Below are positions 2,062-59,478 of a stretch of 64,000 nt of DNA, one piece after another. The stretch covers positions 11,594,001-11,658,000 of the forward strand of contig JAYWIR010000001.1 of assembly GCA_036172245.1 (NCBI GenBank), read 5' to 3'. This DNA is from Raillietiella orientalis. Lineage: Eukaryota. The stretch's first letter is position 1. Each line of letters opens with the position of its first letter. Both the position numbers and the translations under genes were made by a program. The notes beneath the pieces were generated by a model, which was given only the letters and a program-made list of their open reading frames with translations, was not told where the DNA came from and ran no database searches.

Positions 2062-2766
2062 TCAATACCACGGCCTCCAGGGATCTTTATCGAAGAGGTC
2101 CACATCCCGAGGACGCGATACACTATCGTCGTAGATCATTTCCATCTTCACGGGGAAGTTGGACGAGATCGGACTGAGGGATCCGGGTCGGCTGTCCACG
2201 TCCGAAGACTCCACGGGACTGACCGAGCTGCTCCGCCGCAAGCGGTGCACGGTAAGCTCCAGAGGCATGTCCCCCGCGTGCGACTGTCCGCCGGGGAGAG
2301 GCGAGTGGATCGCGGGGTGACCGATGGGGTAGAAGAACAACTGGTGAGGATCGCCCCTCTGCTTGCCAGGAGAAGCACTTTTGTTGGTACTGGGGAGAAC
2401 CAGAGCGATGTCGCCGTTCGGCAGTTGCGTGGGGATCAGCTGGAAGCCTCCGGGCGGACCGTCGACACCGACTGGGATGGAGTGAGGAGGAAGAGGAGGA
2501 GCGGAGGTGGCAGACAGAAGCGACCCGTTCACGTAATTCGAGAGGTGGGCCACCAGCCTCTGCTTTACGGTCACGTCCACACCCTCCATCCGGGAAATCA
2601 AACGGTTCACTTCACTGGCGCACTCGCTGAACCCGGCACAGTACTTGTTCATCACAGCGGGATCCGAGGCAACGGAGAACGCGACCTGCTGCCGGTGCAG
2701 GTTCTGTAGGTGCTTCACGGTCATCTCCAGGATGTCCGCCTTTTCCAGCTTGGAATGCCTGGAGGG
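2062..2766 (-). CDS. h: hairy-like coding exon 3 (helix 2, Orange domain, WRPWY)
   Basis: Acceptor cctgtgcag|CCC; in frame with track ORF 2062..2958 to TGA at 2064-2062. Confidence 0.95.
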   Translation of the reverse strand, partial: PSRHSKLEKADILEMTVKHLQNLHRQQVAFSVASDPAVMNKYCAGFSECASEVNRLISRMEGVDVTVKQRLVAHLSNYVNGSLLSATSAPPLPPHSIPVGVDGPPGGFQLIPTQLPNGDIALVLPSTNKSASPGKQRGDPHQLFFYPIGHPAIHSPLPGGQSHAGDMPLELTVHRLRRSSSVSPVESSDVDSRPGSLSPISSNFPVKMEMIYDDSVSRPRDVDLFDKDPWRPWY

Positions 2767-3137
2767 CTGCACAGGGGAGCAGCAGGTCACAAGCGGGTCA
2801 CGGGAAAAAACGAAGGCAGACTTACGTCTTTTTTCATGGCGTCCAGAACCAACGTCTTCAGCTCGTTCAGACAGTTGTTGATCCTGGCGCGCCTCCTCTT
2901 CTCCATCAAGGGCTTGTTGCTCTGCAAAGGATGCGACACGGTGAGCGGGAGAACGCAATCACGCATGGGGTAAGGGGGGAGGAGGCACGTGTGGAGCGAC
3001 ACGCGCGCAACGTCGCCCGCGCGGGGTCGCAAAAAGCGAGCGGACCAGAAAGGGTTTGCCACAGGTCAACTCACCCTGCGGTTTTCGGATTTCCTGGCGA
3101 TGTTTTCGACTTTCATCTCGAAGGAGGACCAGCGCAT
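2062..3137 (-). CDS. h: hairy-like bHLH-Orange transcriptional repressor; join(complement 3137..3075, 2921..2826, 2766..2062), ~287 aa (280 aa if the in-frame ATG at 3116 is used)
   Basis: Spliced translation [80 protein letters not shown]. Orange domain ([17 protein letters not shown]), [20 protein letters not shown] block, CtBP-like PLELT motif and C-terminal WRPWY-stop. Canonical phase-0 GT-AG introns at 3074..2922 (153 nt) and 2825..2767 (59 nt). [16 protein letters not shown] and LD residues fit Hairy better than Deadpan (recalled from Drosophila, not from a search). Confidence 0.93.
2826..2921 (-). CDS. h: hairy-like coding exon 2 (basic region and helix 1, 96 nt)
   Basis: Acceptor cctttgcag|AGC and donor GAC|gtaagt; encodes [32 protein letters not shown]. 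Confidence 0.95.
3075..3137 (-). CDS. h: hairy-like coding exon 1
   Basis: First ATG downstream of the predicted TSS at 3325; ends CGC AGG|GTGAGT donor. Alternative start at 3116 has a purine at -3. Confidence 0.8.
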
Positions 3138-3293
3138 GCACGCGAGGATGGGGCGACGCTGCTGCTCCACTGCTGCCAGCAGACGGACGAACGCGATGAC
3201 GACGGCTACGCTGCACCGCACGACGCACGCACTGCTGCTGCTGCTGCTGCCCGCCGGGTTGAGGACCCACCGACCGCGAACCGACGACGACGA

Positions 3294-3327
3294 CGACCGA
3301 GCAACCCGCGCGCTCACGAGCGACTGA
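3294..3327 (-). promoter_or_regulatory. Inr + DPE core promoter of the hairy-like gene (TSS ~3325)
   Basis: Minus-strand TCAGTC (3327-3322) fits Inr TCAKTY; GGTCG at 3298-3294 is exactly +28..+32 and fits DPE RGWYV. Confidence 0.7.
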
Positions 3328-3403
3328 GCGGCGTTCGCGCGCTCGCGGGGGGAAAAGAGCAGGGAAGAGGGGCGTGCGCTCGCGCCCGCGCGAAGTCGCG
3401 GAC

Positions 3404-3431
3404 GCCGCCGCCGCCGCCGCCGCCGCCGCCG
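3404..3431. repeat. (GCC)n trinucleotide repeat upstream of the hairy-like TSS
   Basis: About 9 GCC units. Confidence 0.9.
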
Positions 3432-3613
3432 TCGCTGCCTCGCGGCACCTCCTTGCCGCCGCCGTCAACGTCCTCGACGCCAACACAGGAGGGGGGGGGG
3501 GGGCTTTGACGAGGCGCCGTGTCCCCGCACTTCGTCAGCAAATCGGAGGAGCGTCTTTCCGCCCGCGGGCAGCCGTTTGGCAGCCGCGGCAGGAGCAACC
3601 CCTCCCAGGCCGC

Positions 3614-6600
3614 TTCTCACACGCGGCGGCGGGAGGAAAAATACCCCCCTTTCCTCGCCCGCCCCCAGTCATAGCTCCGTCACTCGTCACTAGGACGGCG
3701 ACGAGGGGAGAAAGAAACGCGCGCGCGCGTGTCACGAAGGGACGACGGTAGTCCGCGCGCTCGACGATGGGGGCAAGTCCTCCCCCTCCCCTCCCCTCCC
3801 CCCCCCCCACAACCTTCTTTTCCCCCAGCGGCGCGCACTCGTGCCGCCGCCGCCGAGCCGCTAGGCGCCTGCTCGGCGGCCGCGCTACTTCCCGGCCGGA
3901 CGAGAGCGGCGGCGGGGCGGGCGTACGGACAGGCAGGACAGCGGAGAAGGGATGCGGCTCGACACCCTGGCGCTGGGGCTGCCCGGGGACCGCTCGCTCG
4001 CTGCACGTTCCGCGCACCTCTCCCGTTCTCTCAGACGGCGGCGCCACCAGCGCGCGCGCGTTCAGGCAAGCCGAGAGGCGGGTTGAGGCGCGCATGCGCC
4101 CCGCGCCGCGGAAACCTCCCCTCTTGTCACTCTGCACGTGGTTTCTTGCCCGCCGCCGCTTCCTCCTCGCCGCGCGCGCGCGGACGGAGGCGGCGGCGGC
4201 ATTTTCCTTCGCTCTCTCTCTCTCTCTGTCTTCGCCCCCTCCCCCCCCCCCCGCATCCCCCCTCCTCCGGCTTTCCCACGGTGAGAGCGCAAATACGCTG
4301 CCCCAGTTCCGCGCGGGCGTGCGATGGCGTGAGAAAGCGCCGCGCGTCGGCTCCTCTGACGTCTTCCGCTGCTACTTCGACTTTGCTTTTCTGGCGTGTT
4401 TGCGGGAGGAAAGAAAAGAGGAGGCGTCTTGAGTTACCGGAGGAGCCCCTCGGTAATTGGAACCTTCCCCCCGCGGACGACGGCGTCCCGCGAGGGGGCG
4501 CACGCCAGCGGGGGCGGCGGCAGAGCGAACCGCGCGAATCGGACGAAACGCGGCGACGGCGGCGGGCGGGGCCGTTGGGCCCGCGAAGGGCCTGCAGCAG
4601 GGTGCGGGGGAGGGGGAGAAGGGGGGGGGGCGCCGTTGCCTAGCAGCGTCTGGCGACGCGGAGCGCGCGCGCCCGCCGCGTCCAATTAGCCTTCAAATTA
4701 GAGGCCCCAGCGCGCGTTGCCGACAGGGGCAGGCGGCGGGGGAGATGATGGATCGCTACCGGAGCGTGGGGGCGGTGGACTGCCAACGGAACGCGGCGGC
4801 GGCGGCGGTGGCGGCGCGCGCAGACGAGGGGAGGCGCCGCCGCCGAGTCTGCAGCCTCCGCGGCGAGGACGTGCGAGCAGAACTCACAGAGTTTCCCGTC
4901 CGCGCGCGGGAAGGTCGACCGGGGAACTGCGATGGCGAAAGGGCGCCGGCCGCGGTCACCCGTTCGGGGAGCAAGCCCGCAAAGGGGGAAGGCGAAGGGT
5001 CACGGGCGTGGCCTCGGATGGCGCCAACGCGGGGCTCGCGGAAGTGGCTCCCTGCGCGCGCATCTGTTGCGGGCTTCCTTCGAGCCCTGTCCGCAAGGGG
5101 CGCCGCGAGCGACTCTTCTTCGCCCCCTCCCTTTATCGCGGTCGCCTGCTGAGGGCGGTCCCCATCGGTCCCTATAGAATAAGGACGCGAGGGGGAGGGT
5201 CCGTGCGCGCCCCTTCGCAAGGCCACCGCTCGTTCAGCAACGGCGCTGCAGGTCGGAACGAGAGGAGCTGCCGTCTCGCGCTCGGCCGCACCCTATGAGG
5301 GAAGGGGCGAGGCAGGGGTCAGGAAACCGGGGTGGAGGAGGCGCGAACCCCCCACGCCCACGAGACTAGTGGGAGGTTTTATGACTCCCGCCGGGAGAGC
5401 AGCATCGCGTGCGCCTCCACCTCTCCCCGGAGGGGTGGTCCGCCGCCTCACATCTGCCGAGGGGATGACGGCGCCTTCCCTCCCCCTCCCCTGCTTCCCG
5501 TGGCGAACTCCTCCTGTCCCCGCGGGAATGGGAGGGTGGACGATCCTCCTCCACAGCCGGCCGCGGTGCTCCTACCGGGACCTCGCCCTGCGCCTCGGGG
5601 CCGTCTCGCGCCGCGGCAACGCCCATTCCCACCTCTCCGGCACTTCCGCCGGGGGGCGCGGATATGACCGCGGCTGAGTCGAGCGAGGGGGAGGCAGCGG
5701 TGAGGCTGGGGCCGCCTGCTTCCTACTGGAGGGGCCCGCAACTCCGCAAGAAGGGGCGCCGCACGCACTCTGGTAGGAACCGCGGCACGGCCGGGAGGAG
5801 GCGACCGAAAAATCGGGACGTCTGCCACTCCTACTTTCCTATCCCTCCCTCCAGGAGCGTGGGTGGCTCCCCGCAAGGGGGGTGGCCGTCGCCCACGGCC
5901 GGTTGGCCCTCCGTGCGAGGGAAGGGCGGTTGCGGAACGCCTGGCCACGAGCGGTGGGCGGGGCGCCGTCGGGATGCGGGGGGGAACGGTTGGACAGGAC
6001 GCACGCGCGCCGGCGGGCGTCCTTCACGCCCCCCCCCCCCCTCCTCCATAGGGCTCGCCCCCGCACAGACGTCGCCGCCGCGTCTCCCGCGGGTACGGCG
6101 AGGCAGACGCATGCGCGGTTGGGGGGGAGCATCACGTGTCACTCGCGTGGGCTCGCGACCTGTGGCGCGTGGGCGGAAGGCACCCAGCGCCGTCTGCATG
6201 GGGGATAGCCCTGCGCGTGTGTGGGGGGAGCGAAGGCGAGGGGTGGAGTGGCGCTCCCCGAGGCGAGAAGAAGGGGAAAGCGCCGCCCCGAGAGCCACCT
6301 GGGCGGGCGCGCCTTCCCTCCTTCGCTCCTCCCCCCCCCCCCTTTTTTTTTTTTTGGAGGCCGCTCCTTTTTTTCCCCTTCGCGGCGGCGGAAGGGTCGG
6401 CTTTCCTCCTCCCCCCTCCGCCTCCCCTCTTCATCCTCCCCCCCGCCCCACCCCTTTTTTTTTTGTGTGTCTGTGTGTTGTTGTCCCTGCTGCCGCGGCC
6501 CTTCGGTGTCCACCGAGCAGGGGGCGGCGGGGGCGGCAACACAAAAGGGGCTGACCGGCAGGAAGCGCCCGCCGACCGAAGCGGAAGCGCCCCTCCGCCC

Positions 6601-9468
6601 CCCCCCTCCTTTCAATTCTCTTTGCGCCCCCGCCGACTGCTGGACCCTCGGGGCAGGGGAGGGGTGAGCCCCTCTCTCTTACCCCTCCCTCCCCCCCTTT
6701 TCCTTTTTTCCTCTTTTTTTTTCCCCCCCTTCACCTCCCCCCTTTTTTTGGCCTTTTTTTCCCCCTCCCGCCGGATGGGAACTTGGGAAGGGTGGGGGAC
6801 GAAAGGAGCGGGAAGGGGAAAGAGGGGGCGGCTCCCGGAGGAGCGCGGCATCTCCTTCGCTTGCTGGGAAAAACGCGTGCAGCGCGGGGGAACGTTCGGG
6901 CCAGAGAACGTGCATGCAGTTTCCGTGGCCGCCGCAAGGGGCGCCTGCGCTCCGCCGGATCCGGCAGGTAAGAGAGACGGAGACGGACCGAGGAAGGGAC
7001 CGCGGAAGGTTTCCGCGCGCTGCAGAAGGGGGTGGGAAGGGGAACAGGGTGCGCGCCTGGTAGCGATTCGACCCCTCCTGCCCCCACCCTTTCCCCTTTC
7101 CTTGACCCCTTTGCTGGAGCGCCGCCGCACCTCTCTTCGCGCGCAGTTTCCAAGGAGACCGAACGGTTGTGAACGGATGGGGGGGGGGGGGGAGGGGGGA
7201 ATGGAGGAGCGTTCCCTCGGCAACGCCGGACGACCACGCCGCGAGCGGCGGAGGGCATCGCGCCCGCCCTCTGCCGACGGCGTGCCGGGCGCGCGCGCCT
7301 CCGCCCGCGCGTGCGCGAGGGCGGGGCTCCGCCCGAAACGCCCGAGGCGGCCCTCCCGGGCGGCCCGGCCCTCTCCGTTCGCTTCTCCTTCGGGAATTCC
7401 TCCCGCCCTCGGCTAGGCGGAAGCGCCTGAGACACGCGCGCGCGCGTGCGAGCCGCCCGCCTGGCCGCCGCCGCCGCTTCTCCCCCTCAGGCGAAGGGGA
7501 GGCGGAGGCGTTTCCCACGGTGGTGGGAATGGGGGAGGGGGGGGAGGGACAGGAAGCAGCTCGCGGGCGGGCGAGCCGGCCTCCGCCTCGCTCCTCGGCG
7601 GGGAGAAGGGGGCCGCGACCCCTCCGCGGGGGACGCCGGTCGAGGCAGCGGCGTTTTTCCCTCTTCGCAGCAGCGCGCGTCTCCGGGGCAGCTCGTGACC
7701 GCCGGCCTCCTTCCCGCTCCTCTCCTTTGAGGGATGCCGCGCCCCGAACTCAAGGCGTTCGAAGAGGAAGGGCGAGAAAGGGGTGGGGGTCGCGGGGCAG
7801 GCTCCTGCCGCGAAGGCGCCGGCAGCGCTGCCCGCTGCAGAAGCGGCCGTTAGACGAACGAGGAGGAGGAGGAGGAGGAGGGGGGGGGGGCGGAACGCGA
7901 GGAGCGTGGGAATCGCGGCGTCGGCGGCGGCGCCTTTCCCGGAACCTCGGAAGCACCTCGCAGCGGGAGCGGCACGCACGCACGCACGCACTCACGCACG
8001 CGCGCGTGCGCTGGGCGCGCCTTGCGCTGTCGTCGCTGCCGACGACGATGCTGCCGCCCTAACGGTGCGCGGAGGAAACTGGCCCGCTCTCGACGGCGGC
8101 GTGCGGCTGCGGCCGCGGGAGGGACGTGTGAGGTGGTCCCACGTTCTCTTCCCCTCTCCTCCCCCTCGTTGCACGTCCTGGTCCCGCGTTTGCCTAGGTC
8201 CCGGTCTCTCCCTGCAGCGCGTCCGAACGGTCCTCATCGGCCTCCCTCATCCGTCGCCGGGGTGCGGCGGCAGTCCGGGAACGCTTCCTTCCCGCGGCAG
8301 GTGCGGGGCCGGAATAACGGGGGAGAGGGGGGGGGGGGAAGAGGGAGCGAGATCCAGCGTGGACATGGCCGTTCCTCTCCCCGGGCCTCCAGGAACCCTG
8401 GTCTGCCTTCCGAGTATGGCGCGCGCCTTCCCACCGGCGCGCGCGCGCGCACGTCGCGGGGCGATTAGAGCGAGGCGGCGGCGGCGGCGGCGCTGGAACG
8501 CGGCTGCTCCGGAACGCGCGCTGTTCGCGCGCGCGGCTCGGGCGGGCCTCGCGCTCATTACGTCACCCGCCCGGCTGTCCGCCCGCCGAGGAAGCCGCCA
8601 TGTGCCCGCCCGCGCGTCTGCCGGAATGACTGTGGGAAACGCCAGGACGCGCCGTTCTCACACGGGTGCGCCGAGGCCTCGCGTCCGACGCCCGACCAGA
8701 GGTTGTCACGGGTGATGGATGTCGGGAGAGATGCCGGATTCCTCCGCGGGGAGCTGCGCTCCGCTGGACCCGTTTCGAAAGACCGGATTCCTTTCTTCTC
8801 CTCCTCCTCGCTCCCTCCCCTCCCAACCCCCGTTTTCTCTCTCTCTCCCTTTCTCCTCTTCCTTCCACCTACCCCATCGCTCCCTTCCCAGGCTTTTTTT
8901 TTTCCTTTTCTCCGGAAGGGGGAGGGGAGGGAGGAAGGACCCTTTCTCATCTCTCGCCGGAACAGCCCCTCTACCCCTTCCTCAACCTTCCCACGAGCTG
9001 AGCGCGCGCGTGCGTGCGCGCGCGGGACCGCCGCCGCCGCTCCCATGGGAATTTCCCTCTTCCGCGGGCGCGCGCGAGGCTTCCCCCCGACCCTCCCCCC
9101 CCCCTCCTCCTCCTCCCCTCGGCAGACGCGCGCATTCCCGCGCGCGCGAACGGGCGAAGGATCCCACCGGCACCGGCTGCCTGCGGCCTCGCTCTCACGC
9201 TCGCTGGGGCACTTGTTGCGCGCGCGCGCGCTCCGCACGGGAGGAAATCCCAGGGAAGCGCGCCGCCTCGCGCGCTGTCCTCCCTCTTTCCCCCCCTTGC
9301 ACGCACGGAGACTCCCACGGTCAGATAGGCGCGCTTCGCTTTCCTTTCCTTTTTTTTTTTTTTTTTTTTTTCGCTCGCTCCTCCTTCTCCTCTCTCCTTG
9401 TTCCTCCTCCTCTCGGTCTCTTTTCATTCCTGGGAACGCCGATCCCATCTCCGGGCAACGTTCCCACA
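3614..9468. promoter_or_regulatory. Additional single Su(H)/CSL sites in the divergent intergenic region
   Basis: YGTGRGAA matches at 3614-3621(-), 4273-4280(-), 4328-4335(+), 7512-7519(-), 7905-7912(+), 8988-8995(-) and 9461-9468(-); proneural-type E-box GCAGGTG at 8297-8303. Confidence 0.55.
8631..8662. promoter_or_regulatory. Su(H)/CSL paired site (SPS)
   Basis: TGTGGGAA (8631-8638), 16-nt spacer, TTCTCACA (8655-8662): two head-to-head YGTGRGAA sites with canonical spacing, ~0.9 kb upstream of the dpn-like TSS. Confidence 0.8.
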
Positions 9469-9554
9469 CACCGACCCGAAATAATTACGGATGCGGAGAG
9501 CGGCGGCAGCCGATTGTGCGCGGGCCGTCGTCGTGGAGCGCCGAACGCGAGGGT

Positions 9555-9588
9555 TCATTCCGTCGCCTCGGAACCCGCGAGCAGGTCG
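9555..9588 (+). promoter_or_regulatory. Inr + DPE core promoter of the deadpan-like gene (TSS ~9557)
   Basis: TCATTC at 9555-9560 (A = 9557); GGTCG at 9584-9588 is exactly +28..+32; no ATG lies between it and 9838. Confidence 0.7.
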
Positions 9589-9837
9589 CTCGGAGCGTGC
9601 GCCGTGGACCCACACCGCCTCGGGCAGAGCGAGTCTGCCGACGACTCCAGAGACGCTGCTCCCGCCTCCTCCTTGCTCCCATCCCGTCTCCTCCTCCTGC
9701 TCCTCCCTCCTCTTCCACGCAATCCCCCCCCCCCTCTCCTCCGCCTTGAGCGTGTGCTCAGAAGGCGAACTCCTCTCCCCCTCCTCAACGAGCGACCATC
9801 GCTCCACCCACCGTCACCGGTCCAGGAGAAGAGGAGG

Positions 9838-9966
9838 ATGCCCGTCGACGACGACTTTGTCGTCTCGAGCCGCGACGGCCGCGGACAGACCGTCCCGACC
9901 TCGACGACGACGACGATGTTGTCTTCGGCGTCGTCGCTGTCGCTGTCCAGGGCCGAGGCCCGCAAG
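9838..9966 (+). CDS. dpn: deadpan-like coding exon 1
   Basis: First ATG after the predicted TSS at 9557; ends CGC AAG|gtaagc. Confidence 0.85.
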
Positions 9967-12521
9967 GTAAGCACGCGGCGCACCCTCGGCCGCGACGGCT
10001 CGGGGTTGCCGTCGAGGCGGCGGAAAGGGGAAAACCGTTCCCGTTTCCAGAGCAACAAGCCGTTCATGGAGAAGAAGCGTAGGGCGAGGATAAACCGCTG
10101 CCTCAACGAACTCAAGGCTCTCATCCTGGAAGCCATGAAGAAAGACGTGAGTAAAGAGAGGAAAGGAAAAAAAAAAAAAAAAAGTTTCGTTCCCGCCTGC
10201 CCTGCGCGCGCGTTCCCTGGAGACGGGGGAGCCAGTTAGACCCGTGAGCGTTTTTCCCCGTCGGGTTTCCCTGCCGCATCCCGAGCTCCCGTGGAGCGAT
10301 GCGTGCTTGTTTGCTTGCTTGCCTGCCTGCCTGTCCGGAAGGAAAATCCGGGGGTTGCCGCTTGCTTCCGAGACGCTCCGTGTCGTTTCCTTAGGAGACG
10401 GGGCGAACACGTCGGCCCTGCCTTCGTGGCCGAATCGTCGTGGAAACCGGAATGAGCCACCCGGTTCGAGCAAAGGATCACGGTCAGCCCCCTTCCTTCC
10501 TCCCCACCCCCACCCTCTTTTCTCTCCCTCTTGCCGCTTAGGTTTCCATCTTCTCACCTTCCCCCCCCCCCCCCCCCCCCACGATGTCTCCACCAACCCG
10601 TTTCGACGTCCCGTTCTCGCAAGCTGCCCTGATTGATTGTTGCCTGGCAACGTGGCGCACGTCGTCCCGTCATGAGCTGCACGCGGAACTTTCGCGCTGT
10701 CTCCATCCCTCAGCAAGGAATCCGAGAACACAGCGAGAGGGTGTCTGTCTGGAAGTGAAGAGCTCCACTGGGACCCGACGTGGCAAGGAAACGGCGGCAC
10801 AGACTGCCACCCCCCTGCCATCGACACCCACCCACCGGTGGATGTCGATCGCCATCTCGACTTTTCGCCAGGGACGGCCACAGCGGGAGTTGAAAGGCTC
10901 TCTCTGCTTTGCCCTGGGGATCGGTGCGGCAAATCCAAACCACCACCACCACCGTCCGCGGCGGAGGGAAGGGACCGCATTTCAGTCTTCGAGTTTCGAA
11001 GCGCAGGCATCCTCGCACCCGCACGCACTCATTCACTCGCGCGCGCGCGCGCACACGTGCATACGATTTGACCCTGCGTGGGCACGCCTGGAATCTCCGT
11101 TAACTTACTATCCGGGGGGGGATTAGCGTGTCGCGTTGGCACGCATGCGTGCGCGTGGAAAGTGCTGCTGCTCACGCTTTCTAACAGTTTTTTTCTTTCT
11201 TTCGTCCTTCTCCACCCCCCCCCCCCCCCATCGCCCCCTCCTTCCCCCATCATTTCCTTTCATTGTGTTTTCTTGTCAGCCTGCTCGTCATTCCAAGATC
11301 GAGAAAGCAGATATACTGGAGATGACAGTCCAGCATCTGAAAAACGTCCAGGAGACTCAGCTGGCTTTCGCCGTCTCCACGGACCCGACTGTGCTCCAGA
11401 GATTCAAGCTCGGGTTCAGTGAGTGCGCCGAGGAAGTCAGCCGGTACGTGAACTGCATCGACGGGATGGACTCGTCCCTGAAGCACCGGCTTCTCAACCA
11501 CATCTCGTCGAGCGTGAGCAACGTCCAGAAGCTCAGTTCCCCCTGCACGATCGTGAACTCCATAGGATTCCCTCCGGCTCTGAACCAGCACCTGAAGGCA
11601 AACGGTATTTCCTCCAGCCCAAACCACCTCTTTGACGTCGTGTCTCAAGCAGCCGCGGAAGACGTCAACAACAACCACCAGAAGCGGCTGCTCGGTGGTT
11701 TCCAACTCATACCAAGCCGCCTGCCGAGCGGAGAAATCGCGTTTGTCATACCAAAGTCTTCTCAGGTGCCCCCCACCCTGTTGCCTTACGTCGCCGCGGA
11801 CCTGCAGATGCCTTCCCACTCGAACGGGTCCAGCCTGTGCTTTCATCCTTCGGACTTGAAGGCGAAAGACCACAAAATGTTCCCCAGTGATGTGGTGATT
11901 CGCGGCGAGAACAACAACTCCACCTTCGTTTTGTCGTACGATAATTCCCAGAAAGAGACCCGGTTGCCCCCGGTCTCGGAAGCATTCATCCACGAGCCGT
12001 TCGGCGGTCCCAAATCGAAGAGCCGCCCGGAAGAGGGGCTCAAACCATCCACGGCAGTTCAGGACGAAGCACTGGGATCGAAACCTTTTATCGAAACTAG
12101 AAACCTCAATACATCTTTGCTATCCTCCTCCTACATTAACAGTCACGAGAAAAGCTCGAAGAAGGAGCCGTTGCTCATAGGAAGTGGAAATGGAGCTTTC
12201 TCCGTGTATCGCTCCCGTAAAAATCATCAGAGTAGAGAAGAAAGCATTAACTGCGACAGGAAAGACCGCATGAAAGAACACTTGCAGGCAGGCAGAGTGC
12301 CTGGCTCTAATGGTCACCCATACGGTGAGAAAATCAAGAAGCTGAATGTGTACAAGGAAAACCTGGAGGTCTCGGGTGTGACACTGACGGATGACGTCGT
12401 GAAGGCAAATCCCACAAGAATTATCAAAGTGGAACCCTTGCGGACGGACAATGATGCGCGTCCACAGTGGGAAAGGTGTTTCCCAAATAATGACCCTGAC
12501 TGCGTGTGGAGACCCTGGTAG
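9838..12521 (+). CDS. dpn: deadpan-like bHLH-Orange transcriptional repressor; join(9838..9966,10051..10146,11280..12521), ~488 aa
   Basis: Spliced translation MPVDDD...[67 protein letters not shown]...DPTVLQRFKLGFSECAEEVSRY...GGFQLIPSRLPSGEIAFVIP...WRPW-stop. GT-AG introns at 9967..10050 and 10147..11279, in the same positions as in the neighbouring gene. LSxAExRK, LILEAMKKD and ECAEEVxRY match Deadpan as recalled. Confidence 0.9.
10051..10146 (+). CDS. dpn: deadpan-like coding exon 2 (96 nt)
   Basis: Acceptor tttccag|AGC and donor GAC|gtgagt; bHLH basic region and helix 1. Confidence 0.95.
11280..12521 (+). CDS. dpn: deadpan-like coding exon 3
   Basis: Polypyrimidine tract then ttgtcag|CCT GCT CGT CAT; matches track ORF 11136..12521, which ends WRPW-TAG. 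Confidence 0.95.
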   Translation, partial: PARHSKIEKADILEMTVQHLKNVQETQLAFAVSTDPTVLQRFKLGFSECAEEVSRYVNCIDGMDSSLKHRLLNHISSSVSNVQKLSSPCTIVNSIGFPPALNQHLKANGISSSPNHLFDVVSQAAAEDVNNNHQKRLLGGFQLIPSRLPSGEIAFVIPKSSQVPPTLLPYVAADLQMPSHSNGSSLCFHPSDLKAKDHKMFPSDVVIRGENNNSTFVLSYDNSQKETRLPPVSEAFIHEPFGGPKSKSRPEEGLKPSTAVQDEALGSKPFIETRNLNTSLLSSSYINSHEKSSKKEPLLIGSGNGAFSVYRSRKNHQSREESINCDRKDRMKEHLQAGRVPGSNGHPYGEKIKKLNVYKENLEVSGVTLTDDVVKANPTRIIKVEPLRTDNDARPQWERCFPNNDPDCVWRPW

Positions 12522-56952: not shown

Positions 56953-57499
56953 TTTTTTCTTTTTCTTTCGCTAAATGCCTCAAAAACCTTCGTTCGCAGG
57001 GTGGTTCGCAGGGTCAAGCCCTTTGACACCGTTCCACGCCCCCAGGGATGCGTGTTAACTCTGCTTCAAGTTAGGGGGTGTCCAGGGAGGGCTCCATCCT
57101 GGGAGGGATCCCCGAAGGGAACCACCTCTTCCTCGTTCTCTCCGGTGGGGTCCCCAAGTGGGACCGCTCCATTTTTCCTTCTCCCACAAGAACCCGGATC
57201 TGCTCCTTGCTCCTCCTTCTGAAGGGAAACCCGAAGGGAGGTTTCCAGATTTTCTCTGAAGGGCGCTCCCCGAAGGGAGCAGCGCGCTTCCTACACTGTG
57301 GAGAGGCATCATCAATCCACCACCTCCATGGAACGAGTTAGAGGATCCCCCTCCGAGGGGGGGAGATGGCTCCATTTTCACAACCGGAGTGGAACTCCGA
57401 AGGGTTCTTTGATTTCTGGAAGGACTCCGGAAGGTCAGCTTCCCATCCCGGCCAGTCTACTGGGGCATCCGGCTTCCAGTTTCCACCACTGCTGTACCC
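56953..57499 (-). mobile_element. Long SINE-like element, copy B, body/tail half
   Basis: gaagggaaccacctcttcctcgttctctccgg matches the reverse complement of ~63218-63250; collinear with 52740-53280; homology stops at 57499 where the RT sequence begins. Confidence 0.8.
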
Positions 57500-59478
57500 A
57501 CCATGCGCTCATCAGCATCTCTTTTAGAGGACAGACGGTGCACGGCGTGCGGGTGCAACGCGGGATACAGCAGGGCGGCGTCCTGAGCCCCCTGCTTTTT
57601 AACACCTATTTCGAATTGGTGCTGAAGGTATACAGGGAGACTCTGGCTCTCCAGCCGCGTGTATGTCCCGGCATGCCTGCCGCCTCAGCATACGCGGACG
57701 ATCTTCTGCTGCTGCACACCATCTCCACCCCAGCATGCGCACTCGATGATTTCTTCGAGTTGCTCAGCTGCTGGACAGTCCTGTTGGTACACAGGGCAAA
57801 GTCGTCCGCGGTTCCAGTTGGTGCGGTGGGCAGAGCGGCCGAGCTAGATCCACCTGGGGATCCCCCACGGACTGGTTCTTAAAGTACCTGGACGTTCCAT
57901 TTGGTACTTCTGCTCCGCAGAAGCCTGGTCTGGCCGTCTTCAGAAAGCCCTGCAGTTTCAAAGAGTCAGGTAAAACCAGCCTGAACGGGCAGTGGTGTGG
58001 AACACGTTTATGGCCACCCTCCTCCGTCCCTTGCTTTTTGTTTTCCCCCTGCCATGCAGCATTAGAAAGCGGACAAAGGACCTCCTCCGAATCCGGATCG
58101 CCCTCTGTGGCAAAATGAGGCCCTGAGTCCGCCTAAAGGACTTATGTGCTCCGCGCCGGGACGGTGGGCTAGACCTCCTCCTGACTCTGGAGAGAATGGG
58201 ACTGCAGCTCCAGTTTCGAACACTTTGCCTCGTGGCAAACCTCTGGAGCACCACCTGGTACCAACCTGCACGTCTTCTCGTCCAGAAAACCACCAGCAGT
58301 GTGGGACTCACGTACCTGAGCGCTGTCCACGCAGCCTCATCCACTGCGGACTGCACCTTCGGCAGGCGGCCACTCTGGCGAGGATAAACACCGGATGGAT
58401 CTCGTCCCATCCCGTGAACGGTAGTGCCTGGCTGCAGAAAATCGTTGGCACGTGGGCGAGGACCCAGGGGCCAAGTGCGGAACAGGTGCGACGTTTCCTG
58501 TACGCGGTGACAACAACTGCACGCTCCGGAAGATCCTGGAAGATCCCGTGAAGAGTGCATGGGCGAACAAACCTCCCTCACCGCAGCGCTGCTCTTCCTG
58601 AGGGAATTCCATGGGCATCAGCCTCACGACGAGATGGGAGGTTACCGTGGAAATCTGCGGAAGGAGAAAAAGACTGGGCGAGTGGACGACGGGCCAGCAC
58701 CGACGTGGCGATCCCGAGTGCTCGACCTCGTGGACTTTTGCGCTTGGGCGTGCTACTGAATATTCTAGAGGAATACCTGAAGTGGCCCCCGGTGCTTATG
58801 AACACCCGCACCCTCCCCTTAAAGTGGCAGGAGTCGGAATTGTTGCTGCTGTACTGAGCCTCCCGTGCAACGCCCGCCGGAATCTGTGGATACGGGTATG
58901 TGTGAGCCCAAACTGTGCAAGCTGTGGGAGCGGGAATCCCTATTGCACCTCCTAGCGGACTGTGTTGCCCTCCGGCCCCCTTGGGGACGCTTGGCCACCA
59001 CCCTTGCAACCCCCAGAGGCAACGCCAGAGACGTTGTAAAGCGCTTCTTCCTGAGGGACGCCCTCAGCCGGCAGCATCCCCAGCAGCACTGCGCTGCCCA
59101 CGCGGTGGGACCGTGGCTGCATGGAGCAACGCCGGAGGAGGCCAGAACGACAGATACGCAGTCTATTTTGCTGTCCTTTTTCATGAGGACAGAGCCAAGA
59201 TGGTTCCATCTGGGAGTGTTGAAACAGGAACCTAACGGCATCCTTACAAGGATGCAGAAGACGCCCTCTAGCACAGTGATCCCTTCCCGAACCTCCCCCT
59301 CCATTTTTTAAATGCATTTTTGTTTTGTTTTGTTTTCTTTTTGTTTGTCTCTCCTTCCCCTGTGCTGCCGAGGCGAATCCTGCTGGCCTGCTCATCAGAT
59401 CCCGGCAGGTTCCTTTTCGTATTCATAAGTAATGTGGCAGGATCAAACGTTCTCCTATAGACATGTTTTATAAATAAA
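57500..59478 (+). mobile_element. 5'-truncated, frameshifted L1-clade (Tx1-like) non-LTR retrotransposon
   Basis: RT motifs RGIQQGGVLSPLLFN and AYADDLLL. Later frames give LKYLDVPF, ERAVVWNTFMAT, APRRDGGLDL and zf-RVT-like LCKLWERESLLHLLADC. Stop at 59311, T-rich UTR, ends ATAAATAAA at 59478. Confidence 0.88.

Follow-up and report, generated by a model that had tools for sequence, protein, structure and literature searches.

Textbooks present hairy as a regulator of segmentation and deadpan as a regulator of neural stem cells. The origin of the two genes from one another has been assumed, and we know of no genomic trace of it in model insects. A 64-kb stretch of DNA from Raillietiella orientalis, hereafter the window, holds between positions 2062 and 12521 two intact HES genes of three exons each that are transcribed divergently, and it raises the question of whether these genes are hairy (h) and deadpan (dpn) and, if so, how they came to lie side by side. 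A head-to-head h-dpn pair with Notch-type sites between its members would be a concrete locus for asking how regulatory input came to be divided between the copies of a duplicated HES gene, and whether the ancestral gene was Notch-driven; if the adjacency is a local accident, the locus is a well-annotated, ordinary HES gene pair.

The gene models and splice sites agree with the first-pass annotation, which had described two intact HES paralogues with identical intron positions and 96-nt middle exons. Gene A is encoded on the minus strand (coding part 2062..3137) and consists of exon 1, running from 3137 (or from an in-frame ATG at 3116) to 3075, a 96-nt exon 2 (2921..2826) that encodes the basic region and helix 1, and exon 3 (2766..2062, with its TGA stop at 2064-2062); the 287-aa product has the C-terminus PWRPWY, one residue beyond WRPW. 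Gene B is encoded on the plus strand (9838..12521), with exon 1 at 9838..9966, a 96-nt exon 2 at 10051..10146 that likewise encodes the basic region and helix 1, and exon 3 at 11280..12521, whose 413 codons are closed by WRPW ahead of a TAG stop, giving a 488-aa product that ends in VWRPW. All four introns are of the GT..AG type and in phase 0, and they fall at the same two positions in A and B, ..R[RK]|SNKP.. and ..KKD|P.RHSK... Drosophila h and dpn have these two positions as well, according to PMC1310631; because the shared positions are a family-wide ancestral trait, the intron identity, although real, says nothing specific about this pair.

A proline in the basic region is a HES family trait, as is the WRPW tetrapeptide, which recruits Groucho. 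Both genes encode the proline (gene B reads SNKPFMEKKRRARIN), both have a Pfam HLH match in exon 2 (E 6.6e-08 for A and 9.8e-07 for B), and in both the bHLH is followed by Hairy_orange (PF07527; E 2.6e-15 and 1e-13, above the curated cut-off). HES-1 Orange and bHLH structures match the exon-3 product of gene A, the Orange structure 7c4o at E 7.5e-10. With bHLH and proline, Orange domain and WRPW all present, A and B are by sequence HES bHLH-Orange repressor genes with the same domains as Drosophila and other insect h and dpn, and their products would be expected from family knowledge to dimerise, to bind class-C/N-box DNA and to recruit Groucho via WRPW. A tblastn search of the 64 kb found no third HES gene.

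Best matches, a maximum-likelihood (ML) tree and diagnostic motifs together identify gene B, at the level of sequence, as deadpan type and point to gene A as hairy type. The best named matches of A are beetle 'hairy' proteins (E 3e-31), with E-values that on their own fail to separate h from dpn, and the match list of B is headed by insect deadpan proteins (E 1e-39 to 1e-29), the first h-clade protein following only at E 1.8e-26. The bHLH and Orange phylogeny that the first-pass annotation had named as a check, an ML tree of 80 rows by 274 columns from which E(spl), Side, Hey and crustacean dpn are absent, places B as sister to 25 insect dpn proteins (a 26-row clade, support 100/98) and A beside 25 insect h proteins as their sister (92/62); the starred clade around them, of 27 rows (97/87), also includes Strigamia. 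The motifs, which were picked after the alignment had been seen, divide in the same way: [DE]xNNN is found in 25/25 dpn and 0/25 h proteins, and in B but not in A; a PSRLPSGE-type motif in 23/25 dpn and 0/25 h proteins, and in B; and a PTxLPNGD-type motif in 24/25 h and 0/25 dpn proteins, and in A, which also has the h-type 'ENRR'. B carries the diagnostic motifs of insect dpn and groups with the insect dpn clade, and A has h-type motifs and a less firmly supported place beside insect h; they differ from their insect counterparts in the WRPWY ending of A, in their long branches (1.2 for A and 1.5 for B) and in an identity of 50-60% over the kept columns.

Those long branches bear on a different reading, in which a single h/dpn-type gene was duplicated within this lineage to give A and B, and one copy converged on dpn-like features. 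A young duplication would yield physical adjacency, and an AU test of A and B as sister genes gave p 0.138 and p 0.051 in two runs, so that a sister relationship stands formally unrejected. Convergence would, however, have to account for four separate dpn-type motifs in B alongside the h-type ones in A, for separate clades with strong bootstrap support, and for a similarity between A and B that is lower than that of either to its presumed orthologues: B is the least similar to A of the 80 rows (42%, compared with 58-60% for insect h), and A ranks only 64th of 80 for B (dpn 50-54%). The two genes share 68/120 residues in the conserved core and 77% of nucleotides in exon 2, third codon positions are near saturation (49% identity), and self-blastn found no DNA homology between the upstream regions of A and B or anywhere else outside the exons. 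The lineage-specific reading is already disfavoured, and we consider it very improbable; the comparisons support A and B as old paralogues and not as recent copies.

Putative start sites are marked by core promoter motifs. The composite of an initiator (Inr) and a downstream promoter element (DPE) at +28 (TCAKTY-N23-RGWYV) has exactly two matches in the 64 kb, and both lie in the correct orientation at the start sites, 3325(-) and 9557(+), that had been predicted before: at 3294..3327 on the minus strand (Inr TCAGTC with A at 3325, DPE GGTCG), 188 nt upstream of the ATG of gene A, and at 9555..9588 on the plus strand (Inr TCATTC with A at 9557, DPE GGTCG), 281 nt upstream of that of gene B. 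Since 1.95 such composites are expected by chance in the whole window, the evidence is their position and not their number. The matches support divergent transcription of A and B from putative start sites that resemble real arthropod core promoters, in agreement with the earlier start-site prediction. A classic bidirectional promoter has divergent start sites less than ~1 kb apart and one common promoter; it is ruled out here, the predicted start sites being 6232 bp apart and each having its own Inr and DPE. On these predictions A and B are divergently transcribed neighbours with a long stretch of DNA between them.

That region, 6700 bp from ATG to ATG (3138..9837; GC 0.709, CpG o/e 1.06), contains no Rfam match, no Pfam match among the 23 ORFs of at least 170 aa that lie wholly inside it, and no repeats by self-blastn besides the A/B exon homology. 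The statement that no transposable element (TE) remnants lie between the genes is therefore upheld by the ORF scan and by self-blastn. The companion statement, that TEs are many beyond 13 kb, is weakly borne out by one RVT_1 fragment at 57223-57879, the single TE match among 150 scanned ORFs (of 157 of at least 170 aa) in a scan that cannot detect elements that are decayed or non-coding.

The same 6.7 kb is enriched in matches to the Su(H)/CSL consensus, with nine where 0.57 are expected; the remaining 57.3 kb of the window also has nine, and shuffling the intergenic sequence 2000 times never yielded as many as nine. Three sites lie near gene A, at 3614-3621 (-), 4273-4280 (-) and 4328-4335 (+), or -289 to -1010 from its putative start site, and six lie on the side of gene B within 7512..9468 (at 7512, 7905, 8631, 8655, 8988 and 9461), or -2045 to -89 from its putative start site. 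A Su(H) paired site (SPS) comprises two CSL consensus sites arranged head-to-head with a spacing of 15-17 nt, and the sequence at 8631..8662, ~0.9 kb upstream of the putative start site of B, conforms to this rule (TGTGGGAA, 16 nt, TTCTCACA), which makes it a predicted Notch-responsive element. It is unique in the window, and neither 2000 intergenic shuffles nor 300 window shuffles produced one.

The motifs could instead be a by-product of an odd, GC- and GGGAA-rich composition, with no Notch input, and the looser pattern RTGRGAR is indeed enriched too (23 against 4.4 expected), a sign of a purine-rich bias that shuffles may miss. Composition alone does not readily explain why the true consensus ranks first of 3360 composition-matched permuted motifs, with runners-up that share its TGGGAA core, or why the two sites of the SPS are arranged canonically, head-to-head and 16 nt apart. 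HES genes including dpn are, moreover, described as classic direct Notch targets in PMC3782438, which also reports several Notch-responsive enhancers of Drosophila dpn that are bound by Su(H). We regard a purely compositional origin as quite unlikely; the promoter-proximal groups and the SPS on the deadpan side suggest that Notch signalling directly reads out at least B, and probably both genes.

The first-pass annotation had proposed that A and B are kept adjacent by common Notch-responsive enhancers within the 6.2 kb that separate their putative start sites, as a two-gene regulatory complex. An intergenic region that is enriched in Su(H) sites, contains an SPS and has taken up no other gene or detectable TE would suit that proposal, as would the striped, hairy-like expression of Tribolium dpn mentioned in PMC2522291. 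The sites, however, fall into two groups, each beside one promoter and separated by 3.2 kb without sites, so that enhancer sharing is unsupported, as is the claim that such enhancers hold the genes together. Separation also appears to be tolerated, as h and dpn lie on different scaffolds or far apart in most insects examined, and on different chromosomes in flies. Nothing observed requires shared enhancers to hold A and B together, and we think it unlikely that they do.

Precedents for linked HES genes are of several kinds. The zebrafish pairs her1/her7 and her5/her11 share regulation and are vertebrate-specific duplicates with overlapping functions. Both pairs are head-to-head, her1 (minus) and her7 (plus) ~12 kb apart and, in her5/her11 (him), her11 (minus) and her5 (plus) ~2.4 kb apart (PMC4172395 supplement 2), which lends the sharing of enhancers some analogy; A and B resemble them as two divergent HES paralogues a few kb apart, but represent two deeply diverged and functionally distinct arthropod orthology groups. 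The E(spl)-C, which comprises E(spl)-type bHLH genes and Bearded-class genes (PMC4575448), is likewise a cluster of genes for bHLH-Orange repressors that respond to Notch and have Su(H) sites; the pair described here differs in being of h/dpn type by best matches (the tree being without E(spl)) and in comprising the only two HES genes of the 64 kb. Lineage-specific tandem Hes clusters elsewhere in metazoans, as treated in Gazave et al. 2014 (PMC4172395), also consist of linked paralogues that trace tandem duplication; among the five ecdysozoans covered there, no cluster of h and dpn is listed. Our literature search found no paper reporting h-dpn adjacency.

Linkage in other arthropods was gauged from public protein tables, in which h-clade and dpn-clade proteins were paired per species and a contig of the same size was read as the same chromosome, not as adjacency. 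By this proxy h and dpn share an identically sized chromosome-scale contig in 12 of the 14 paired arthropod species, which are phylogenetically non-independent (five are beetles, three of them ladybirds); the contigs differ in size in Tribolium castaneum and Diabrotica balteata, and the two locus tags of Cryptolaemus are ~1750 apart. Among nine species with small-scaffold assemblies, eight have h and dpn on different scaffolds, so tight adjacency is not generally maintained in insects; in a termite both lie on one scaffold of 506,614 bp. The assignment of Drosophila h and dpn to different chromosomes is confirmed, with hairy on 3L and dpn on 2R (Gazave et al. 2014, supplementary file 1); A and B, by contrast, are 6.2 kb apart and divergent. 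These data suggest that h and dpn have been kept on one chromosome across most arthropods and fit two genes that arose in tandem long ago and later dispersed; by the same-chromosome proxy, an ancestral h-dpn linkage is indirectly supported.

On balance, it is probable that the window holds arthropod hairy (A) and deadpan (B) orthologues in head-to-head arrangement, each with its own Inr and DPE, with Su(H) sites between them and read by Notch, as a leftover of tandem duplication. A and B would be ancient paralogues whose adjacency is most simply a remnant of the inverted tandem duplication from which h and dpn arose; most insects have presumably since separated the two while keeping them on one chromosome, and in flies they have come to lie on different ones. 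Tight h-dpn adjacency being the exception elsewhere, the adjacency of A and B could instead be secondary, a chance intrachromosomal rearrangement having joined genes already apart on one chromosome. Arthropod gene order scrambles within chromosomes, the same chromosome without adjacency is the common state in pairable insects, and A and B have no residual homology outside exons, all of which would be expected of a secondary encounter; that chance should bring two specific paralogues head-to-head within 6 kb, with nothing between them, is improbable. Tandem birth is, in addition, typical of HES paralogues (PMC4172395), and close linkage is hinted at by the termite scaffold (507 kb), by two unidentified Hes genes ~95 kb apart in Ixodes scapularis (PMC4172395 supplement 2) and, on our reading of the Ensembl ids (4545 and 4551), perhaps by the honeybee genes. 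We therefore hold a secondary origin to be unlikely.

A stronger form of the favoured reading, that head-to-head h-dpn is the ancestral mandibulate (or arthropod) state, arisen by inverted tandem duplication and retained in this lineage as a small HES complex responsive to Notch, with dispersal along one chromosome in insects and a split in flies, is tentative and itself rather doubtful. If true, hairy, a segmentation gene, and deadpan, a neural one, would have started out as divergently transcribed neighbours that drew on a single set of enhancers bound by Su(H) and then subfunctionalised. What the locus offers is a real pair of genes of an ordinary family in an uncommon, possibly ancestral arrangement, and the retention of h and dpn on one chromosome is a cheap prediction that can be checked in chromosome-level assemblies.

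Two genes of the HES family of bHLH-Orange-WRPW repressors face away from each other in the window, gene A, of the hairy (h) type, on the minus strand and gene B, of the deadpan (dpn) type, on the plus strand. Gene A comprises exons 3137-3075 (with an alternative in-frame ATG at 3116), 2921-2826 and 2766-2062, encoding 287 residues with the C-terminus WRPWY, and gene B comprises exons 9838-9966, 10051-10146 and 11280-12521, encoding 488 residues with the C-terminus WRPW. All four introns are GT..AG and phase 0, and they interrupt the two genes at matching codon boundaries, directly 5' of the basic-region SNKP and in the loop after KKD, leaving a middle exon of 96 nt in each. The Orange domain is recognized by Pfam in both proteins (E 2.6e-15 for A, 1e-13 for B), as is HLH, and the exon-3 product of gene A matches HES-1 fragments of known structure covering Orange and bHLH. 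No third HES gene was detected by tblastn with both proteins across the 64 kb, which contain no N and have an overall GC content of 0.625. By exons, introns, Pfam domains and tblastn, the gene description of the first-pass annotation is right to the base. The identical intron positions that it noted are indeed present in A and B, but they are uninformative about the orthology of the pair and the age of the duplication, because the positions are also identical in Drosophila h and dpn (as described by Schlatter and Maier 2005, PMC1310631) and ten Platynereis Hes genes have two homologous bHLH introns in common (as described by Gazave et al. 2014, PMC4172395).

Database searches with the last exons of A and B returned arthropod-dominated match lists, and no near-identical protein for either gene in the searched collection, the best matches being 48-53% identical over the aligned part. 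The best named match of gene A is a ladybird 'protein hairy' (E 3.1e-31, 53% identity over 54% of the query), with dpn-labelled and chelicerate proteins so close behind that E-values do not discriminate. The list for gene B is headed by insect deadpan or dpn-clade proteins, with E-values from 4e-39 to about 1e-26, and its earliest hairy-clade entry is a Timema protein at 1.8e-26. For phylogeny, 79 database proteins, the named ones hand-picked from the best 120 matches of each of the two lists and eight unnamed ones added, were combined with A and B into 81 rows; these formed a quick tree, and a careful maximum-likelihood tree used 80 rows and 274 columns, with a long-branched Culicoides row omitted. 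The careful tree recovers gene B as the sister of the 25 insect dpn proteins together (ultrafast bootstrap 100, SH-aLRT 98) and gene A as that of the 25 insect hairy proteins (92/62), the latter grouping nested in a clade with a Strigamia protein (97/87), such that A and B hold matching relative positions immediately outside the insects. Such a placement would suit a pancrustacean from beyond the insect orders sampled.

A recent duplication, with A and B as each other's closest relatives, would yield a different topology, one that is 15-19 log-likelihood units worse yet falls short of formal rejection by the AU test (p = 0.138 for the quick tree and 0.051 for the careful one); the branches of the two proteins are long, at 1.2 for A and 1.5 for B. 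Pairwise identities over the kept columns point away from such a sister relationship. Insect hairy proteins are 58-60% identical to gene A, whose lowest value in 80 comparisons is that with B, at 42%; dpn proteins are 50-54% identical to gene B, for which A ranks 64th of 80. Four short motifs, picked post hoc from the alignment, split the two clades almost perfectly: [DE]xNNN (25/25 insect dpn, 0/25 insect h) is present in B and absent from A; the PSRLPSGE type (23/25 dpn, 0/25 h) and AExR[KR] preceding the basic region (20/25 dpn, 3/25 h) are found in B; and the PTxLPNGD type (24/25 h, 0/25 dpn) is found in A. Between A and B, 68 of 120 residues of the bHLH-Orange core and 49% of third codon positions are identical, and blastn detects no similarity between their flanks outside the exons. 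The orthology of gene A with hairy and gene B with deadpan is thus well supported by sequence comparison, if not proven by the strictest test, and the duplication behind the pair is concluded to be old. The phylogenetic check suggested in the first-pass annotation, run here on proteins from the two match lists, places A with insect h and B with dpn, and leaves their sisterhood short of formal rejection.

Because [DE]xNNN, which lies upstream of the 'LPSGE' box, is also found in 12 of 14 chelicerate dpn-like proteins, in the onychophoran protein and in a mollusc HES, and is missing from every hairy-clade protein of the alignment, the motif appears ancestral and lost in hairy. Deadpan thus looks to be the more ancestral-like copy of the two. 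Chelicerates themselves possess two HES clades of h/dpn type that show no one-to-one pairing with mandibulate h and dpn in the careful tree, where the chelicerate 'h-like' clade branches outside all else. Mayflies carry an additional, fast-evolving hairy-clade gene (P0196, P0171; branch length about 1.1), which in Neocloeon is on a 20,028,167-bp contig together with h and dpn. Public names are unreliable for these proteins, as several hymenopteran proteins automatically named 'protein hairy' behave as deadpan: that of Cephus (P0153) falls within the dpn clade of the careful tree, and P0154, P0166 and P0143 stand at the top of dpn-type match lists, a placement that comes from the lists only.

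The first-pass annotation suggested that the head-to-head pair may preserve an ancestral inverted tandem duplication. Linkage in other arthropods was gauged by a proxy, namely the size of the longest contig associated with each protein in three protein searches, compared between h-clade and dpn-clade proteins of a species; where the two proteins each lie on a single contig of equal size, they are taken to share it. Among the 14 species with both contigs longer than 10 Mb, sizes are equal in 12, comprising the insects Neocloeon, Macrosteles, Schistocerca cancellata, Brassicogethes, Phaedon, Harmonia, Coccinella, Cryptolaemus and Cotesia glomerata and the chelicerates Parasteatoda, Ornithodoros and Ixodes hexagonus, and unequal in Tribolium castaneum and Diabrotica balteata. 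This fraction far exceeds chance for ten-odd chromosomes, although the species, five of them beetles, are not independent. In species with smaller scaffolds, by contrast, h and dpn fall on different scaffolds in eight of nine cases (Henosepilachna, Anoplophora, Exocentrus, Gonioctena, Nicrophorus, Frankliniella fusca, Ephemera danica and Stegodyphus), the ninth being Zootermopsis, where both proteins map to one 506,614-bp scaffold. An ancestral linkage is indirectly supported at the level of the chromosome-scale contig, and general adjacency is not.

Besides the Zootermopsis scaffold, two genomes hint at closer linkage. In Ixodes scapularis a pair of unassigned Hes genes is listed ~95 kb apart on one scaffold (Gazave et al., PMC4172395 supplement 2). 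Honeybee h and dpn may be close, as read from their Ensembl ids, 4545 and 4551 (the ash/ase neighbours in the same table are 3261 and 3265; PMC1310631), a point that the paper does not discuss. Against general adjacency, the locus tags of Cryptolaemus h and dpn are ~1750 apart; in Anopheles, dpn is described as ~100 kb from E(spl) genes and hairy as lying elsewhere, on the second chromosome (PMC1310631); and in Drosophila dpn is on 2R and hairy on 3L (Gazave et al. 2014, PMC4172395), in agreement with the different chromosomes cited in the first-pass annotation. In the simplest reading, h and dpn would have been born as neighbours, kept on one chromosome in most arthropods and moved apart along it in most insects, and their adjacency in Raillietiella orientalis would be still retained. 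That the two genes became neighbours again in this genome is less likely. An ancestral relic is a plausible reading of the pair, with new support on the scale of chromosomes.

Hes paralogues often lie in clusters, and pairs in head-to-head orientation are already known, zebrafish her1/her7 and her5/her11 being arranged like A and B (PMC4172395). Hox, runt and E(spl)-C are presented as the few conserved arthropod complexes by Dearden 2015 (PMC4575448), whose accessible text makes no mention of h-dpn linkage, and a full-text literature search, thin on subscription journals, found no published h-dpn adjacency. The pair is thus a fresh example of a familiar arrangement, of relevance to evolutionary developmental biologists.

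Between the two start codons lie 6700 bp (3138-9837) with a GC content of 0.709. The observed/expected CpG ratio is 1.06 in this interval and ~1.0 window-wide, without sign of CpG depletion despite 62-71% GC. The core promoters were sought, on both strands of the whole window, as the initiator TCAKTY with the downstream promoter element RGWYV 23 nt on. Exactly two composites were found, at 3294-3327(-) and 9555-9588(+), a count that carries no meaning given that shuffles of the 64 kb predict a mean of 1.95. Both, however, are correctly oriented and lie 188 nt (A) and 281 nt (B) 5' of the start codons, and the chance of two random matches both falling in such oriented 300-nt windows is, by rough estimate, ~1e-5. 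Because the composites coincide in position and orientation with the start sites predicted in the first-pass annotation, 3325(-) and 9557(+), these are likely the starts of A and B, 6232 bp apart. A single bidirectional promoter was rejected in favour of a divergent pair with two putative promoters at that distance. Gene A has N-box or class-C-type sequences (CACNAG, CACGCG, CACGTG) at its putative start (3315-3320), within the 5'UTR (3139-3144) and within intron 1 (2986-3005). These could serve HES autoregulation, although hexamers of this kind show no clear enrichment between the genes. A (CGC)12 repeat (3403-3439) lies upstream of that start. The putative start of gene B is flanked by a T22 run and CT-rich repeats of 13-22 nt, GA-rich on the opposite strand, at 9350-9411 upstream and 9655-9716 downstream; a C20 run occupies 10561-10580 in intron 2.

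The window contains 18 copies of the Su(H)/CSL consensus YGTGRGAA, where 8.0 would be expected, and half of these (9/18) are within the 6.7-kb interval, for which dinucleotide-preserving shuffles average 0.57 copies and 0 of 2000 reach nine. Purine bias was controlled for with the 3360 distinct permutations of the eight motif positions, among which the true motif ranks first in the interval and the runner-up patterns overlap its TGGGAA core. Two of the sites form a Su(H) paired site at 8631-8662, TGTGGGAA-N16-TTCTCACA, ~0.9 kb upstream of the putative start of gene B. In its head-to-head orientation and its 16-nt spacing the pair matches the classical paired site; it is unique within the window and arises in 0/2000 interval shuffles and 0/300 window shuffles. 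Notch-type input to the genes is thus a good inference at the motif level, consistent with the several Su(H)-bound, Notch-responsive enhancers described for Drosophila dpn (Babaoglan et al. 2013, PMC3782438). An 'SPS+A' module was rejected, a proneural-type E-box (RCAGSTG, at 8297) being isolated and, at ~330 bp from the paired site, too far away. The class-C/HES-type CACGYG numbers 132 in the whole window against 63 by shuffles, and is not clearly enriched between the genes, which hold 19 of the 132, or about 14% of matches in 10.5% of the window by hand count.

The first-pass annotation proposed that shared Notch-responsive enhancers keep the genes together. The Su(H) sites form two promoter-side groups, one 0.3-1.0 kb upstream of the putative start of A (3614, 4273, 4328) and the other 0.1-2.0 kb upstream of that of B (7512, 7905, 8631, 8655, 8988, 9461), with no Su(H) consensus in the 3.2 kb that separates them, and this layout is therefore no argument for sharing; each gene may instead have a Notch-responsive module of its own. 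Separation of h and dpn, seen in most insects examined, is widely tolerated, which argues against a strong regulatory tie. A shared enhancer complex is thus hypothetical, with some evidence against it.

Transposable elements had been described as absent between the genes and numerous beyond 13 kb, and the scans agree with the first statement and bear out the second only weakly. The 23 open frames of at least 170 codons wholly within 3138-9837 are without a Pfam match, the repeats of the interval are short and low-complexity only, and Rfam at gathering score gives 0 matches in the whole window. Across the window, 150 of the 157 open frames of at least 170 aa were scanned against Pfam; outside the HES genes the scan identified no domain besides one RVT_1 reverse-transcriptase fragment (57223-57879, plus strand, E 1.3e-07). 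Self-blastn finds almost no repetition anywhere in the window and is uninformative as a test for such elements. Gene-poor flanks are frequent around developmental regulators, and the ~50 kb downstream of gene B (13000-64000; GC 0.51-0.67), where this fragment is the sole Pfam-detectable open frame, look like one.
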